DNA of 64,000 bases from Bacteroidia bacterium (GTDB lineage Bacteria; Bacteroidota; Bacteroidia; NS11-12g; UBA9320). The notes beneath the pieces are model-generated. The model saw only the letters and a list, made by a program, of their open reading frames with translations. It searched no databases and was not told the DNA's origin. The stretch lies in assembly GCA_965216465.1 (NCBI GenBank), contig CBDCFW010000004.1, forward strand, positions 235,464 to 299,463, read 5' to 3'. Of this stretch, positions 24,060-29,114 are shown in pieces (the stretch's first letter is position 1; each line of letters opens with the position of its first letter). Both the position numbers and the translations under genes were made by a program.

Positions 24060-24089
24060 AAAGCCTTTCCGTTTGGGAAGGCTTTTTTT
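24060..24089. terminator. Intrinsic terminator after ahcY
   Basis: AAAGCCTTTCC-GTTT-GGGAAGGCTTT followed by a T-run. Confidence 0.8.
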
Positions 24090-24807
24090 ATTTTATACGA
24101 AATACCCCACGAGTGCCTCGCGTTAAAAATACTTTGTCAGCATTTTCAATATCGTCACGGGTAATTAATTTCTGGTCTAGCTGAAATCCATAGTTCCCTA
24201 AAATGTAGCGCTGTGTAGCACCATGAACGCCACCGCATTTGGGGTGAGGTACAATAATATCTTCAGTGCCATTCATTAGAATTATGTTGCTGCTAACTTC
24301 TTCACAAATTTCGTTTTTGTCGTTGGTTATGAATAAGTAGTCAAGATTAAGCTCTTCCTTCTTTTTAGACGCTAAAACATAATAGATGCTCGATAGACTT
24401 TTTACGGTTAACCAATCAACCATAGGTTTCGGTTTGTCGTAAAATCCATAATTGCCTTTAAACAAAGGGGCTTTGTTGAGCTCTGCAGCTAGGTCAAGAA
24501 CAGTGGGAAGAAAGAAATCGTGGCTTGCTTCTTTATAGGAGTGGTTAAACGCAACTTCATTTTGATCTGGGAGATAGGTGCCAAACCCTTCTCGGAAAAA
24601 GTTCATTCTAAAAATACCATTAGCACCATAGTTCTTCGCGGTTGAAAGAATGAGTTCTTCATCGATGGTAAATTGAGGTTCCATGTCGTAAATTTCAAAT
24701 CCGTCTAATATTCGTTCAACATGGTAGTAATTAAGTGGAACGTTCTGATCTACAATGCGTATGGTCTCAAAAAAACCATCGCCATATAAAAAGCCTCGAT
24801 TCATCAT
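24088..24807 (-). CDS. Aminotransferase class IV (PabC / branched-chain aminotransferase-like)
   Basis: NRGFLYGDGFFETIR, H..R, E...SNI, G..G.T motifs. Confidence 0.8.
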   Translation of the reverse strand: MMNRGFLYGDGFFETIRIVDQNVPLNYYHVERILDGFEIYDMEPQFTIDEELILSTAKNYGANGIFRMNFFREGFGTYLPDQNEVAFNHSYKEASHDFFLPTVLDLAAELNKAPLFKGNYGFYDKPKPMVDWLTVKSLSSIYYVLASKKKEELNLDYLFITNDKNEICEEVSSNIILMNGTEDIIVPHPKCGGVHGATQRYILGNYGFQLDQKLITRDDIENADKVFLTRGTRGVFRIK

Positions 24808-24884
24808 GGTGTAGCAATATTAGACAAGATGATTTGAATTCAATAAATACAATCAAATAATCGCAATTCCCAAAAACAATAAAA

Positions 24885-24937
24885 ATCCCAAAAAGAGAAT
24901 GAAATCTCAAAAAAGGACAAATTTCTCATGTTTGGAT
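24885..24937. promoter_or_regulatory. Phased upstream activator-like sites, unit 1
   Basis: ATCCC-AAAAA-GAGAA (24885), ATCTC-AAAAA-AGGAC (24904), TTCTC-ATGTT-TGGAT (24923): 19-bp period, variants of palindrome GTCTC-N5-GAGAC. Confidence 0.55.
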
Positions 24938-24988
24938 ATTGTTGGCACGGCTCGGTTAATTTGTTTCTGTTGTTTGTAATACGCAGAA

Positions 24989-25001
24989 AATCAATGTATT
25001 G
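24989..25001 (+). promoter_or_regulatory. IHF-like binding site, unit 1
   Basis: AATCAATGTATTG matches WATCAANNNNTTR exactly; a related AATCAGTGGTTA is at the equivalent place in unit 2 (25399). Confidence 0.5.
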
Positions 25002-25040
25002 TGTGCGGTTCGAAGTGCTTATGAAATTGATTTTGCGGTT

Positions 25041-25057
25041 TTGGCACCGCTATTGGA
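25041..25057 (+). promoter_or_regulatory. Sigma54-type -24/-12 promoter, unit 1
   Basis: TTGGCACCGCTATTGGA: GG-N10-GG with TGGCAC and TTG conserved (the -12 is GG rather than GC). Confidence 0.7.
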
Positions 25058-25067
25058 TAGTATATGG

Positions 25068-25251
25068 CAGATTAAGTTCTATTGAAATTTGACCATATTA
25101 ACCATCTGTCGAAAGGCAGAAAATATATAAGAAGTTGATAAAACAACAAACTACTACTACTAACTATTTGAATTAAACGAATTTTTTGTTTTTTCATTAT
25201 TAACCATTACGTTTTACATTAAAAGCTCTGCCGCAAAGCAGGGCTTTTTTT
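25068..25251 (+). ncRNA. Putative sigma54-dependent small RNA, copy 1 (~185 nt)
   Basis: Bounded by the promoter and a terminator (AAGCTCTGC-CGCAAA-GCAGGGCTT-T run); contains CTGTC-GAAA-GGCAG hairpin, and 41-nt and 20-nt boxes identical to copy 2. Confidence 0.65.
25221..25251 (+). terminator. Intrinsic terminator, unit 1
   Basis: AAAAGCTCTGC-CGCAAA-GCAGGGCTTTTTTT. Confidence 0.85.
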
Positions 25252-25294
25252 ATGCTCTGAATTTAAGGATCTCGTAATTACAGAAACGAGAAAA

Positions 25295-25347
25295 GTCTAA
25301 AAAAGAGACAAGAATCTAAAAAAGAGACGAAATGTTGATTTTTGGAA
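25295..25347. promoter_or_regulatory. Phased upstream activator-like sites, unit 2
   Basis: GTCTA-AAAAA-GAGAC (25295), ATCTA-AAAAA-GAGAC (25314), degenerate TGTTG-ATTTT-TGGAA (25333): 19-bp period, same distance to the promoter as in unit 1 (within 1 bp). Confidence 0.55.
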
Positions 25348-25451
25348 TAGGGATTCGTGTCTCAAAAATTTCGTTATATATATTTGTAAACTGCACATAA
25401 TCAGTGGTTAATGATGCAATTTCGGGTAATTGTTACACCAATTTTTCTTTT

Positions 25452-25468
25452 TTGGCACTGGTATTGGA
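25452..25468 (+). promoter_or_regulatory. Sigma54-type -24/-12 promoter, unit 2
   Basis: TTGGCACTGGTATTGGA, same spacing as unit 1. Confidence 0.7.
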
Positions 25469-25478
25469 TACTATATAC

Positions 25479-25667
25479 CAGATTACGTTCTACCGAATTT
25501 TGAAATAATTACCTCAGACAACCGAAAGGTTCGACAGAGTTTATATATAAAGAAGTTGATAAAACAACAAACTACTACTACTAACTATTTTTTGATGAAT
25601 CTTTAAGATTCGATTATTAACCATTACGTTTTTTAATTAAGCCCAGACAGAATCGTCTGGGCTTTTT
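25479..25667 (+). ncRNA. Putative sigma54-dependent small RNA, copy 2 (~190 nt)
   Basis: Starts CAGATTACGTTCTA like copy 1; AACC-GAAA-GGTT hairpin; invariant boxes at 25550-25590 and 25613-25632; ends in a terminator. Confidence 0.65.
25639..25667 (+). terminator. Intrinsic terminator, unit 2
   Basis: AAGCCCAGAC-AGAATC-GTCTGGGCTTTTT. Confidence 0.85.
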
Positions 25668-25733
25668 ATTTGCTCTTATTTTCCAATATTTAATCTTTGG
25701 AGTTTCCTTTATCTTTGCACCCCAATTTATCAT

Positions 25734-28700
25734 ATGGAAAATACACCAGCTTATACCCCAAATAATAAAGTTAGAGTTGTTACTGCAGCTTCTCTGTTTG
25801 ATGGACACGATGCCGCTATTAATGTTATGCGTCGTATTATTCAAGCAACAGGTTGTGAGGTAATACATCTTGGCCATGATAGAAGTGCTGAAGAAGTAGT
25901 GAATACTGCAATTCAGGAAGACGCTAACGCTATCGCCATGACTAGCTATCAAGGGGGACATAATGAATATTTTAAATATATGTATGATCTGCTTAAAGAA
26001 AAAGGGGCAGGCCATATTAAACTCTTCGGTGGAGGAGGTGGTACTATTCTTCCTTCAGAAATTGAAGATCTAGAGAACTACGGTATCGCAAAAATCTACC
26101 ATCCAGACGATGGAAGAGCTATGGGGCTGCAAGGTATGATTAACGACCTTGTTCAAAAATCTGATTTTCCAACCGGTTATGGATTGAATGGTGAGGTAGA
26201 AAGCTTTAGAGATCGAAATAAGATGTCGATTGCTAAGGTCATTTCTGCGGCAGAAAACTTTCCTGAAGAGAACAAAGCACTACTTGATGGCATTAAGGCT
26301 GAAGCTCAGGCTATTAGCACTCCAGTTTTGGGAATCACAGGTACAGGTGGAGCAGGTAAGAGTAGTTTAGTTGATGAATTGGTACGTCGATTTTTATTAG
26401 ACTTTCCAGAAAAGAACATTGCCATTATTTCTGTTGATCCTTCAAAAAGAAAAACGGGTGGGGCACTTTTGGGTGATCGAATTCGAATGAATAGTATTCG
26501 TAACGATCGTGTTTATATGCGCTCATTGGCAACGCGTCAGGCTAATCTAGCACTTTCAGCTCATATCGATACGGCGAAAGACATTCTCAAGGTAGCAGGT
26601 TACGATTTGATTATTCTTGAAACATCAGGTATTGGTCAAAGTGATACGGAAATTACAGACCATAGTGATTTAAGTCTGTATGTGATGACACCTGAGTATG
26701 GGGCGGCTACACAGTTGGAGAAAATTGACATGCTTGATTTTGCAGATGTCATTGCCATCAACAAGTTTGACAAGCGTGGAGCTCTGGATGCCTTGCGTGA
26801 TGTAAAAAAACAATTTCAACGCAACCACAAAAGGTTTGAAGAAGATGCTGATACAATGCCTGTTTATGGCACAATTGCGAGTCAATTTAATGACCCTGGC
26901 GTTAATGCATTGTATGCTAAGCTGATTGATACGATTAATACAAAAACTGAACATCAGTTTGACACTTCATACTCAACCGAACAAGAGCTCTCTGAGAAGA
27001 TATACATCATCCCACCGAAGCGTGTTCGATACCTTTCTGAAATTGCAGAGAATAATAGAGGCTACGACGAGTGGGCTAAAAAACAAAGTGAAATTGCTCA
27101 GAAGCTGTATGGACTAAAAAAGACTATCAGCACCATTCAAGAAACAGCAGTTACAGACGGAGACCGCTTGATTAAAGATCTTGAAGAAACCTATAGCAAG
27201 ATTGCCTTGGACTTTGATCCAAAGTTGCAAAAATTGATTGATGAATGGGATAGTATAAAAGAAGCATATGCCAACGATATTTACACTTACCTGGTACGTA
27301 ACAAGGAGATAAAGGTTGAAACTAAAACTACTTCATTATCGCACCAAAAAATCAGTAAGGTTGCTTTACCAAAATACGAAGCCTGGGGAGATGTATTGCG
27401 GTGGAATTTGCAAGAAAATGTTCCTGGGAAGTTTCCGTTTACAGCAGGTATCTATCCATTTAAGCGACAAGGTGAGGACCCTACTCGAATGTTTGCGGGA
27501 GAAGGTGGTCCTGAAAGAACGAATAAACGTTTTCACTACCTGAGCAGCGATATGCCTGCAAAGCGATTAAGTACGGCATTTGACTCGGTTACTCTATATG
27601 GTAATGACCCAGACTATCGTCCTGATATTTACGGTAAAATTGGAAATGCAGGTGTAAGTATCTGCTGTTTAGATGATGCTAAAAAACTCTATTCTGGATT
27701 CAACTTGGCAAATCCTATGACTTCAGTGTCTATGACGATTAATGGTCCAGCTCCAATGTTGTTGGGTTATTTTATGAATGCAGCAATTGACCAGCAATGT
27801 GAGATCTACATCAAAGAAAATGGGCTAGAGGATGATGTCAAAAAGAAAATTGATGCTTACTTCAAGGAACGAAATTCAGAACAACCTAAATACAATGGTG
27901 AGCTTCCAGCAGGGAACGATGGTTTAGGATTGATGTTACTTGGTTTGACCGGTGATAAAGTATTGCCAGCTGAGGTATATGCCGAAATCAAAAAGAATAC
28001 CTTAGCTCAAGTGAGAGGAACTGTTCAGGCAGATATTCTAAAAGAAGACCAAGCTCAAAATACATGCATTTTCTCAACGGAGTTTGCCCTTCGACTAATG
28101 GGTGATGTTCAGCAGTATTTCAATCAAAATAATGTAAGAAACTTCTATTCTGTTTCTATATCAGGTTATCATATAGCAGAAGCTGGAGCAAATCCAATTA
28201 CTCAATTGGCATTTACTTTAGCTAATGGATTCACTTATGTAGAATACTACTTAAGTAGAGGAATGAATATCAACGACTTTGGGCCAAATCTAAGCTTCTT
28301 TTTCTCGAATGGAATTGATCCAGAGTATGCAGTAATTGGTAGAGTTGCTCGTAGAATTTGGGCTAAAGCCATGAAGTTGAAATACGGAGCTAATGAGCGA
28401 AGCCAAATGTTGAAATACCACATTCAAACAAGTGGTAGAAGTTTACACGCTCAAGAAATCGACTTTAACGATATAAGAACTACGTTGCAGGCACTTTATG
28501 CAATTTATGACAACTGTAACAGTTTGCATACCAATGCGTACGACGAGGCAATTACTACACCTACTGAAGAGAGTGTGCGACGAGCGGTAGCCATTCAACT
28601 AATTATTAATCGTGAATTGGGTCTTGCTAAAAATGAGAACCCATTGCAGGGTTCATTTATTATTGAAGAGTTGACTGATTTAGTTGAAGAAGCTGTGTTG

Positions 28701-29114
28701 CAAGAGTTTGATCGAATTACTGAAAGAGGGGGGGTGTTAGGAGCTATGGAAACGATGTACCAACGTAGTAAAATTCAGGAAGAAAGCTTGTATTACGAAA
28801 CACTTAAACATACTGGCGAATACCCAATTATTGGTGTAAACACTTTCTTGAGCTCTAAAGGATCACCAACCATCTTACCGAAAGAGGTAATAAGAGCTAC
28901 AGAAGATGAGAAGAAATTCCAGATCAATACATTGCAGTCGCTTAATACCCGCAACGAAGAAGAAGCGAATACTCAGCTTAAGAATATACAGCAAGTTGCA
29001 TTAGACAATGGAAATGTATTTGAAGCTTTGATGGAAGTTTCGAAGTATTGTTCTCTCGGACAAATTACGAATGCTCTGTTCGAAGTTGGTGGCCAATACC
29101 GACGAAATATGTAA
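25734..29114 (+). CDS. icmF: Fused isobutyryl-CoA mutase / MeaB-like GTPase (B12-dependent)
   Basis: N-terminal B12-binding [21 protein letters not shown]-loop, VDPS, ETSGIGQ, C-terminal mutase [24 protein letters not shown]; own TATCTTTG box at 25710-25717. Confidence 0.92.

Follow-up and report, generated by a model that had tools for sequence, protein, structure and literature searches.

In the 64,000-nucleotide stretch of DNA analysed here (the window), the gap before icmF consists of two diverged copies of one module. An offset of 411 bp had been claimed for them in an earlier note on this DNA, and the alignment places them 410-411 bp apart, with 73% identity over 229 nt (BLAST). Long invariant blocks are separated by spacers that have diverged as heavily as described, and a whole-genome BLAST search returns no module copy besides these two. 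Each module carries a pair of TCY-N7-RGA palindromes phased by 19 bp, an IHF-like box, a putative -24/-12 promoter, a shared 5' box, a GAAA-loop hairpin, two invariant boxes and a strong intrinsic terminator (Table 1). This layout agrees with the earlier reading except for the IHF-like site, which stands in copy 1 and fits the consensus less well in copy 2. Boxes resembling TGCAGAWAWTCAG are equally placed in two relatives (G008 and G024) and in a putative third sRNA of this genome. The extra TTGGCACGGCTCGGTTAATTTG element of copy 1 has a near-twin at the equivalent spot before a T9SS-protein gene in locus L046.

A scan of 2.5 kb finds 8 terminator-like sites, where shuffled sequence yields 1.9 +/- 1.2. 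Downstream of the second terminator, icmF possesses its own -7 box, 17 nt ahead of its start codon (ATG at 25734). This box is kept in relatives and belongs to the Bacteroidota consensus TAnnTTTG as quoted in PMC9723704. Because the RNAs have their own terminators and icmF its own promoter, the RNAs are not icmF leaders, as had been argued before.

Table 1. Features of the two modules, of the icmF promoter and of the candidate regulator (window positions unless a contig is given)
Feature	Position	Strand	Basis
Module copies 1 and 2	24886-25255; 25296-25670		reading, alignment
Putative upstream activator sites, copy 1 (TCY-N7-RGA x2)	TCCCAAAAAGAGA 24886-24898; TCTCAAAAAAGGA 24905-24917	+	sequence
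Putative upstream activator sites, copy 2 (TCTAAAAAAGAGA palindromes x2)	25296-25308; 25315-25327	+	sequence
Extra TTGGCACGGCTCGGTTAATTTG element between activator sites and promoter, copy 1 only	24943..24964	+	sequence
Conserved GCAGAAAATCA box, copy 1, IHF-like WATCAA-N4-TTR match	24983..25001	+	sequence
IHF-like AATCAATGTATTG, copy 1	24989	+	sequence
Conserved TGCACATAATCAGTGGTTA box, copy 2, IHF-like, weaker match (25398)	25392..25410	+	sequence, alignment
Putative sigma-54-type promoter, copy 1 (TGGCAC-CGCTA-TTGG)	25042..25056	+	12/12 homologues, rpoN present
Putative sigma-54-type promoter, copy 2 (TGGCAC-TGGTA-TTGG)	25453..25467	+	12/12 homologues
sRNA gene 1, ~189 nt, start inferred	25067..25255	+	covariance model (CM), fold, terminator
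sRNA gene 2, ~193 nt, start inferred	25478..25670	+	CM, fold, terminator
5' box AGATTA(A/C)GTTCTA	both sRNA copies	+	sequence
GAAA-loop hairpin	copy 1 25106-25119; copy 2 25513-25539 (core 25520-25531)	+	sequence
Invariant box with UUGAUAAAACAACAAACUACUACUACUAACUA (copy 1)	25129-25169 / 25550-25590	+	alignment
Invariant box ATTATTAACCATTACGTTTT	25196-25215 / 25613-25633	+	alignment
Intrinsic terminators	25221-25255 / 25639-25670 (as scanned: 25221-25248 / 25639-25664)	+	terminator scan
icmF -7 box TATCTTTG (TAnnTTTG)	25710-25717	+	sequence, kept in relatives
NtrC-family regulator, REC-AAA+-Fis-type HTH, 448 aa	G000:C5:494879-496222		

Homologous modules occur in G001, G008, G014, G017, G021, G024, G057 and G058, so that 9 of the 66 family genomes are carriers when the present one (G000) is counted. 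A pattern search detects the RNAs in 7 of the 66, with no match in the reversed control, and the covariance model CM R1, a search of the kind envisaged in the earlier note, also reaches 7 of 66. The window copies score 44.6 bits (copy 1) and 46.1 bits (copy 2) against the model, and their fold z-scores are -2.03 and -3.12, respectively. Nine of the 11 modelled base pairs vary on both sides, and the first hairpin displays nine different sequences at one position across homologues. Paired cells reach 94.5% versus 27-40% when slid, a level matched by 0 of 500 shuffles in an alignment that was fitted to the model. U-G pairs and T-runs are consistent with the + strand.

Members of the RNA family occur in no fewer than five genera, all within a single uncultured Bacteroidia family, and mostly stand as one to three tandem copies right before icmF. 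Its hallmark is a covarying 5' hairpin followed by an invariant UUGAUAAA box and a G-poor unpaired tract; longer homologues also have hairpin loops with the repeated motif YUGAUUA / GAGUGAUGA. The position upstream of icmF is kept in genera g1, g17, g20 and g22. The RNAs of the latter three give no CM R1 match at E<=0.01, their homology being based on conserved gene order, a common type of promoter and shared boxes and not on a scored alignment. An exact-pattern scan of 185,579 species returned 11 loci, six of which are the same genus-level MAGs; the other five, under Dysgonomonas, Phytoplasma, Enterousia, Rickettsiales and Tannerellaceae titles, failed the covariance model at E<=0.01. Every carrier seen belongs to an uncultured lineage represented by MAGs. 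That the RNAs could not be assigned to a known family in the earlier note is borne out by Rfam, with zero matches at gathering score and, at E<=10, 16 matches that are all far below gathering, the best ones being terminator-driven. The same genome also encodes a putative third sigma-54 RNA bearing AAGUAGUUAAAGUAGUAG, a partial complement of the tract; by BLAST this RNA was not found in relatives, 3 of the 66 genomes matching in short pieces only.

Standard sigma-54 promoters combine TGGCAC at -24, including its GG, with TTGC at -12 across a 5-nt spacer. In all 12 homologous copies, from seven genomes, TGGCA(C/T)-N5-TTG is located 23-27 nt before the RNA match and the flanks diverge around it, so that the constant spacing reported for the two window copies (both TGGCAC-N5-TTGG) is a property of the homologues as well. 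One RNA copy, in G021, is devoid of TGGCAC. Among icmF upstream regions, 15 of 30 family loci bear TGGCA(C/T)-N5-TTG sites, 25 in all, and 22 of the 51 genomic TGGCAY-N5-TTG sites lie outside ORFs of at least 100 aa, as crudely called. The -12 element reads TTGA, TTGT or TTGG across the genus. The canonical TGGCAC-N5-TTGC has no occurrence in this genome and is found in several of the more diverged, syntenic icmF-upstream copies of the sister genus g20. Thus, TTGG at -12 does look lineage-typical, as the earlier note had surmised, and the comparison shows that the putative sigma-54 promoters of this lineage accept any base where the canonical -12 element has its C, which matters for regulon prediction. 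Both protein partners invoked for such promoters are encoded: the genome search retrieves rpoN (RpoN DNA-binding domain, E 6.8e-55) and four strong NtrC-family enhancer-binding proteins (EBPs; Sigma54_activat domain, E<=2.2e-68). The paired palindromes are situated 125-156 bp upstream of TGGCAC, within the approximately 80-200 bp expected of EBP sites, and a pair of sites at -140 to -155 is what EBP-controlled promoters typically show.

The paired-site pattern has only three matches in the 3.23-Mb genome, namely the two modules and the promoter of one EBP gene, which encodes a REC-AAA+-HTH regulator and is directly followed by an Hpt gene. A TCY-N7-RGA site is present on the regulator promoter in 29 of the 30 orthologue loci examined; 27 of these 29 have it 40-63 nt ahead of the start codon (shuffles: mean 2.7, maximum 8), the outliers being G078 and G017, for which the scripted start call is uncertain. 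Homologous activator sites are also found in the modules of relatives. The sharing of this palindrome points to the regulator as the candidate activator of the sRNA genes, under autoregulation, and since the palindrome overlaps the regulator's own sigma-A promoter, self-repression is probable. Of the 15 genomes that show sites before icmF, 14 encode an orthologue, and none of the six genomes without an orthologue has such sites, a link made of motif sharing and co-occurrence among related, non-independent genomes. In G068 (84% complete), the promoter is present and the orthologue was not found; conversely, G023, G009, G021, G007, G019 and G010 have the orthologue and no such promoter before icmF. 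An order-wide scan for an activator site together with the promoter gives, as pattern counts, 35 places versus 5 in the control for family f1 and 28 versus 8 for family f2. Among proteins of solved structure, LuxO (5ep0, E 2.9e-79) is one of the regulator's closer relatives. The regulator is not a LuxO orthologue because it scores 351.1 bits against the LuxO model NF041946 (NCBIfam), whose cut-off is 800; it likewise falls below the cut-offs of the NtrC, AtoC and ZraR models.

The RNAs are poor in G (11% versus 19% for the genome) and rich in one short repeat. Across 25 RNAs, ACTAC, TACTT and TACTA together reach a count of 290 compared with 26 +/- 6 in shuffles, the number of ACUAC/UACU repeats ranges from 2 to 35 per homologue, and the repeat tract is unpaired in 10 of 10 MFE folds; one AACAACAA lies in the window box. 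No conserved ORF was detected in the RNAs, and sRNA gene 1 has no ATG-led ORF. The genome, which is 100% complete, contains no Hfq domain and no CsrA, and it encodes two RRM_1 proteins, at G000:C3:219962-220171 and C6:93003-93212; RRM-type proteins are the only candidate binding class seen here. UUACUUAC, considered as a motif common to co-regulated 5' UTRs, is not enriched there: of its 128 genomic occurrences, 4 are within 60 nt ahead of the start of a crudely called ORF, where about 3 are expected. A multi-site decoy titrating a single-strand RNA-binding protein and a base-pairing RNA appear about equally probable.

Overall, the locus is read as two paralogous sRNA genes of ~190 nt with their own sigma-54 promoters and terminators, activated by the regulator and acting as putative decoys, with a probability of roughly 0.7. 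The same sigma-54/EBP-driven sRNAs could instead operate by base pairing, as Qrr and FopS do, through a seed in the unpaired CAAACUACUACUACUAACUA tract or in the AUUACGU boxes, a possible but less favoured mode. The tract is single-stranded and does not differ between the window copies, Bacteroides sRNAs use single-stranded seeds without Hfq (PMC11697453), and the putative third RNA offers a partial complement. However, a 12-nt complement scan allowing G-U pairs gives 260 matches versus 346 for the reversed seed, with no cluster at start codons, the variation in repeat number would be unusual for a seed, and the third RNA has no counterpart detected by BLAST in relatives. It is unlikely that TGGCAC is bound by a transcription factor or arose by chance and that the RNAs start from another type of promoter (sigma-A or ECF). 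Besides the noncanonical G, A or T at -12 in the genus, this possibility draws on the absence of numerical enrichment of TGGCAC-N5-TTG, with 14 sites genome-wide against 15 for an N4 and 24 for an N6 spacer; yet no TAnnTTTG box precedes the conserved 5' box, and the invariable spacing and position of the element, the full canonical form in g20 and the paired upstream sites all argue for sigma-54.

A cis-acting role as icmF leaders or attenuators, either as a riboswitch or through a leader peptide with runs of Thr, Leu or Tyr codons, has a very low probability. The conserved position before icmF and a UUG-started frame spanning the repeats in the window copies would fit, whereas, in addition to the terminators and the icmF -7 box, the RNA is ~2.2-2.6 kb away from icmF in G057 and G058, and the copies of G017 (contig C151) and G021 have different flanks with no icmF in the stretch read. 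The frame itself codes for Thr in the window but for Leu in G008 and G024, and in five homologues (G014, both G017 copies, G001 and G004) its third codon is a UAA stop. No ATG precedes the tract in the RNAs. That the locus is what remains of a mobile or repetitive element and has no function, as tandem duplication and AT-richness might suggest, is hardly credible given only two copies in the genome, conserved synteny, covarying base pairs and invariant boxes that persist where the spacers decay.

Under the favoured reading, each sRNA gene would have a -24/-12 promoter to itself, giving a + strand transcript that runs up to the gene's own intrinsic terminator. The Hpt protein encoded next to the regulator probably passes phosphate to it; the regulator would then bind the paired palindromes and remodel the sigma-54 holoenzyme, probably also repressing its own gene via the palindrome on its sigma-A promoter. 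The RNAs would work in trans, as a decoy whose many sites titrate a single-strand RNA-binding protein. Such a circuit would join the decoy logic of CbrB-CrcZ/Hfq or GacA-RsmZ/CsrA to the transcriptional wiring of LuxU-LuxO-Qrr. In Vibrio quorum sensing, LuxU-LuxO-Qrr1-5 couples an EBP and its Hpt partner to several paralogous sRNA genes. The likeness to the circuit proposed here includes an Hpt encoded beside a REC-AAA+-HTH sigma-54 activator, paralogous sRNAs with -24/-12 promoters and upstream sites, and activator sites on the activator's own promoter. However, Qrr RNAs are ~100 nt long versus ~190-260 nt here, share no sequence with these RNAs (the Rfam Qrr covariance model gives no match even at E<=10) and depend on Hfq, which this genome lacks, and LuxO recognizes a site other than TCY-N7-RGA. 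In the CbrA/CbrB-CrcZ/CrcY/CrcX system of Pseudomonas, A-rich AAnAAnAA motifs titrate Hfq/Crc; as proposed here, sigma-54 and an NtrC-family regulator drive paralogous sRNAs with many short unpaired motif copies. The motif here is ACUAC/UACU instead, Hfq is absent, Rfam gives no match, and the RNA genes do not adjoin the regulator gene. GacA-RsmX/Y/Z and BarA/UvrY-CsrB rely on sigma-70 promoters, a GGA motif and CsrA as partner. As two-component-driven, multicopy and sometimes tandem decoys with repeated motifs they resemble what is proposed for the present RNAs, a loop motif being seen in the longer homologues here, but they are GGA-rich whereas these RNAs are G-poor, and CsrA is absent.

Within Bacteroidota, FopS/GibS of Bacteroides thetaiotaomicron are 65-70 nt long, use canonical sigma-ABfr promoters and a single 5' seed, and the FopS family is reported to be deposited in Rfam (PMC11697453). 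The same paper describes multicopy paralogous sRNAs in a host without Hfq and CsrA and associated with an RRM-1 protein, likenesses set against the ~190-nt length, the lack of a TAnnTTTG box before the RNA and the lack of an Rfam match here. The lack of a known family stands for the RNA; however, a sigma-54-promoter sRNA, Rfp36 of Flavobacterium psychrophilum, is already on record (PMC9723704). Its co-expression cluster includes exported proteins of unknown function, in parallel with the T9SS-tailed proteins bearing the same sites here. Rfp36 looks unrelated: its printed sequence, compared by eye, shows neither ACUAC repeats nor any of the boxes, and the gene is described there as single, with no mention of activator sites. 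Beyond this table entry, no sigma-54/EBP-driven multicopy sRNA of Bacteroidota was found described in the literature searched.

To our knowledge, Bacteroidota lack both Hfq and CsrA, and post-transcriptional control in the phylum is for this reason poorly mapped. The paralogous sRNA family under a sigma-54/activator circuit proposed earlier is supported by the homologues in relatives, and the best reading is a new multicopy sRNA family driven by sigma-54 and an EBP in an uncultured Bacteroidia family, similar to LuxO-Qrr or CbrB-CrcZ. Its predicted wiring is nearly complete from sequence alone, with a sensor relay, an activator and its DNA site, autoregulation, promoters and a multicopy RNA output carrying a new repeat motif. 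The type of circuit resembles those by which other bacteria govern group behaviour or the choice of carbon source. More speculatively, a phosphorelay from a hybrid kinase via Hpt to the REC-AAA+ regulator might control UAC-repeat decoys that titrate a single-strand RNA-binding protein, perhaps one of the RRM-1 type, and thereby reprogram translation of surface or T9SS cargo; if true, this would be a third, independently evolved global switch of the Csr/Crc type, in Bacteroidota devoid of Hfq and CsrA. Should the RNAs prove to be decoys, their ACUAC repeat would provide a direct handle to fish out the missing global RNA-binding protein.

A single module is present twice between the class IV aminotransferase gene and icmF (window 24600-25900 read; 24860-25270 aligned with 25271-25681), the two copies lying 410-411 bp apart. 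The observation of the earlier note, two diverged copies offset by 411 bp, is confirmed, and its interpretation, a paralogous small RNA (sRNA) pair under a sigma-54/activator circuit, is supported within the limits of sequence evidence. The sole BLAST match of copy 1 in the genome (G000) is copy 2, with 73% identity over 229 nt. The IHF-like site assigned to each copy stands in part, as a conserved box found in both and an exact IHF consensus only in copy 1. The proposed icmF promoter after the second terminator is recognized there by its -7 box.

Features of the putative sRNA modules in the window and of putative co-regulated loci elsewhere in G000
Feature	Position	Strand	Basis or remark
Class IV aminotransferase gene, upstream neighbour	24088-24807	minus	domain match
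Paired 13-bp TCY-N7-RGA palindromes, 19 bp apart	24886/24905 (copy 1); 25296/25315 (copy 2)		sequence
Conserved GCA(G/C)A(A/T)AATCA box	both copies		exact IHF consensus match at 24989
Sigma-54-type TGGCAC-N5-TTGG	25042-25056 (copy 1); 25453-25467 (copy 2)		sequence
5' box AGATTA(A/C)GTTCTA	both copies		sequence
Hairpin with GAAA loop	both copies		sequence
Invariant 41-nt box	25129-25169 (copy 1); 25550-25590 (copy 2)		sequence
Invariant 20-nt box ATTATTAACCATTACGTTTT	both copies		sequence
Strong intrinsic terminator	25221-25248 (copy 1); 25639-25664 (copy 2)		terminator scan
-7 box of icmF, TATCTTTG	3' of second terminator		sequence
icmF	25734-29114		B12-binding, MeaB and mutase domains
340-aa protein, T9SS sorting tail	L046 1386-2611 (G000:C5:341885-343110)		TCY-N7-RGA + TGGCAC-N5-TTG(A/T)
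605-aa protein, T9SS sorting tail	L150 2226-4190 (G000:C1:24225-26189)	minus	TCY-N7-RGA + TGGCAC-N5-TTG(A/T)
77-aa secreted peptide ORF, signal peptide	L151 3901-4275 (G000:C6:1008900-1009274)	minus	no Pfam match; 5' TCCCATTTTGGGAT + TGGCAT-N5-TTGAC
Putative third sigma-54-driven sRNA	L047 5700-6004 (G000:C5:498199-498503)	minus	ORF-less ~200-nt unit ending in terminator

A further element with TGGCAC in it, TTGGCACGG(C)T(C/T)GGTT(A/T)ATTTG, stands between activator sites and promoter in copy 1 (24943-24964) and in a T9SS-protein promoter (L046 1414-1436), and is absent from copy 2. Relatives carry TGGCA...TGCCA or a doubled TGGCAC at the promoter or just before it. This element may be the site of another regulator.

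Putative sigma-54 promoters are recognized by a TGGCA(C/T)-N5-TTG motif located 23-27 nt 5' of the RNA match in 12/12 copies defined by covariance model (CM), with the consensus ttTGGCACt.gGATTG.AT. In genus g1, the canonical C at -12 is replaced by G, A or T, and the icmF-proximal copies of genus g20 have TGGCAC-N5-TTGC. This canonical form has no occurrence in G000 (3.23 Mb, 100% complete), despite rpoN and four enhancer-binding proteins (EBPs) with full sigma-54-interaction domains, both of which had been expected in the genome. TGGCAY-N5-TTG occurs 51 times, 22 of them outside ORFs (crudely called, at least 100 aa), and several sites with TTGA or TTGT stand directly 5' of genes. Because TGGCAC-N5-TTGC is missing from G000 and such sites precede genes, the -12 element of the lineage seems to be TTGN, in agreement with the earlier view of TTGG as a possible lineage variant. 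Intergenic candidate promoters in G000 show TTGA, TTGT or TTGG at -12.

In a model-fitted alignment of the 12 copies, 9 of the 11 pairs in two helices vary on both sides, and 94.5% of cells are paired versus 27-40% with slid partners, values reached in 0/500 shuffles; since this alignment leans towards the modelled structure, these figures are supportive, not decisive. By eye, hairpin 1 shows nine distinct sequences at one position, with GAAA, UUCG, GCAA, AAUU and other loops. Both window RNAs fold better than shuffled sequences (z-scores of -2.03 and -3.12), and the G-poor ACUAC repeat tract is unpaired in 10/10 minimum free energy folds. The Rfam 15 search of the whole window, a check proposed earlier, gave zero matches at gathering score; at E<=10, 16 matches appeared, all far under gathering, the best aligning to terminators only. 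No ATG lies 5' of the invariant box in either window RNA, and the listed ORFs (24928-25092 and 25430-25606) span regions that do not correspond between the copies. A frame opened by UUG crosses the repeats, encoding Thr in the window copies and Leu in those of the related genomes G008 and G024; it was rejected as coding, since UAA at codon 3 closes it in five homologues. Judged by sequence, the RNAs are outside any described family and noncoding.

Relatives were searched by BLAST, box pattern and a CM built from four copies (66 family genomes). The box pattern (0 matches for its reversed control) and the CM, the route suggested previously, each matched 7/66 genomes; with all methods pooled, the module is found in nine, namely G000, G001, G008, G014, G017, G021 and G024 (g1) and G057 and G058 (g16). 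Tandem pairs 5' of icmF, as in the window, are found in G008 and G024, and single, longer modules, again 5' of icmF, in G014, G001 and for one G017 copy. An exact-pattern scan of one genome per species (185,579 species) returned the same genus-level MAGs and five matches without CM support. The G021 copy (L037 1459-1696, minus strand, contig G021:C235), a long-type member directly 3' of a tRNA gene and its terminator, lacks both TGGCAC and the 5' box, and would be either truncated or under another promoter.

The DNA 5' of icmF in 30 family genomes includes 1-3 sigma-54-type sites in 15 of them, and each of the 25 sites is followed by an ORF-less, terminator-ended stretch of 140-260 nt. These 15 genomes include genera g20 (nine genomes; G075 with three copies), g17 (G060) and g22 (G080), whose RNAs have in common with the window RNAs the UUGAUAAAUACUA box, repeats and sometimes UUAUUAACC. 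As the first CM detected none of them, the case for their homology is made by synteny, type of promoter and shared boxes instead of a score. Copy number across the family ranges from 1 to 3; the three tandem modules of G075 (L130, G075:C46:187660-191004) are ~520 bp apart, all with TTGC at -12. In genus g13, a short contig carries two activator-site-plus-sigma-54 matches separated by 2.5 kb (L103, G044:C18:225-2846); the icmF query used had no match in G044.

By regular expression scan, two sites 19 bp apart are found at three places in G000, both window modules and one promoter, where they lie 30-60 bp 5' of a REC-AAA+-lid gene start, directly against a TATATTTG -7 box. This gene (G000:C5:494879-496222) encodes a 448-aa candidate regulator with a Fis-type HTH tail; a gene for a 112-aa Hpt protein follows immediately, and atpD is divergent. 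Family-wide, TCY-N7-RGA occurs within 110 nt 5' of the start codon at 29 of 30 orthologue loci, the 30th having just 8 nt of upstream DNA (shuffled control: mean 2.7 loci, maximum 8). At 27 of the 29, the site stands 40-63 nt 5' of the start codon, just upstream of the -7 box, the outliers being G017, with an uncertain start call by the script, and G078. This pattern is as expected for an autoregulated activator recognizing TCY-N7-RGA. Orthologues (at least 65% identity) are found in most genera, are absent from 14 of 28 g1 genomes (G000 counted) and are present in 9/9 genomes with g1/g16-type RNA, split in G058. For the 30 icmF loci, 14 of the 15 genomes with sigma-54 sites have the orthologue (exception G068, 84% complete), 0/6 genomes without it have sites, and six have it without sites; as these genomes are mutually related, the counts do not amount to a statistical test. 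The gene is split or has an in-frame stop at G058:C2:687278-688538, G013:C295:1583-2921 and G009:C2:171073-172296; the sRNA is still found in G058, and no sigma-54 site lies 5' of icmF in G009. By sequence scores, the regulator is an NtrC-family protein of generic type, falling short of the cut-offs of all named NCBIfam equivalogs (LuxO, 351 versus 800 bits); among solved chains, the closest to it are NtrC-type proteins of Aquifex, and LuxO ranks fifth. Multicopy sRNAs driven by an EBP and sigma-54 are an already known kind of system. No earlier description of this RNA family, its ACUAC-repeat make-up, DNA site or Hpt-coupled regulator was found in the literature or Rfam, and these features, with the assignment to such a regulator in Bacteroidota, appear to be new.

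In 25 RNAs from 5' of icmF, the G content of the body is 11% versus 19% for the genome, and ACTAC/TACTT/TACTA words number 290 versus 26 +/- 6 in mononucleotide shuffles. ACUAC and UACUA are present in 25/25, with 2 to 35 words per RNA; the longer homologues of g1 have 2-4 additional small hairpins with YUGAUUA or GAGUGAUGA loops. RNAs that titrate proteins, for example CsrB/RsmZ and CrcZ, carry many unpaired short motifs in variable copy number, and have tandem paralogues and a dedicated two-component activator. The window-type RNAs resemble them in their unpaired repeated motif, its variable count, the tandem paralogous genes and the candidate two-component activator, and may likewise titrate a protein. 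Action by base pairing is an alternative of fairly low probability: a simple complement scan gave 260 matches versus 346 for its reversed control and thus no support, but this is a weak test, and base pairing is therefore kept as a rival. A periodic repeat of 147 bp, or of a multiple of 147, with TGGTTGGTAGTAG in each unit, is present in one gene (G000:C1:64703-69118), which came up solely because it yielded spurious seed complements. Regarding possible protein partners for titration, neither Hfq nor CsrA was found in G000, which encodes two small RRM_1 proteins; in Bacteroides, proteins of this class bind sRNAs (PMC11697453).

Activator site and sigma-54-type promoter also stand together 5' of other G000 genes outside the window. 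The two T9SS-tailed proteins have no known domain beyond the C-terminal sorting domain, and their genes are likely co-regulated with the sRNAs. The putative third sRNA unit consists, in order, of TTCTCTTTTTGGGAC, TGCAGATAATCAG, TGGCAC-N5-TTGAAT, ~200 nt without ORF and the terminator AAGGCCCAAGTTTACTTGGGCCTTTTT; it holds AAGTAGTTAAAGTAGTAG, a partial complement of the ACUAC tract in the window RNAs, and was not found in relatives by BLAST. A comparable association is the F. psychrophilum SM4 cluster, which, in PMC9723704, groups exported proteins with a putative RNA, Rfp36, whose sequence as printed there differs by eye in having neither the boxes nor the repeats of the window RNAs. Sigma-54 regulons have a 'cell exterior' theme, which the putative regulon described here would fit.
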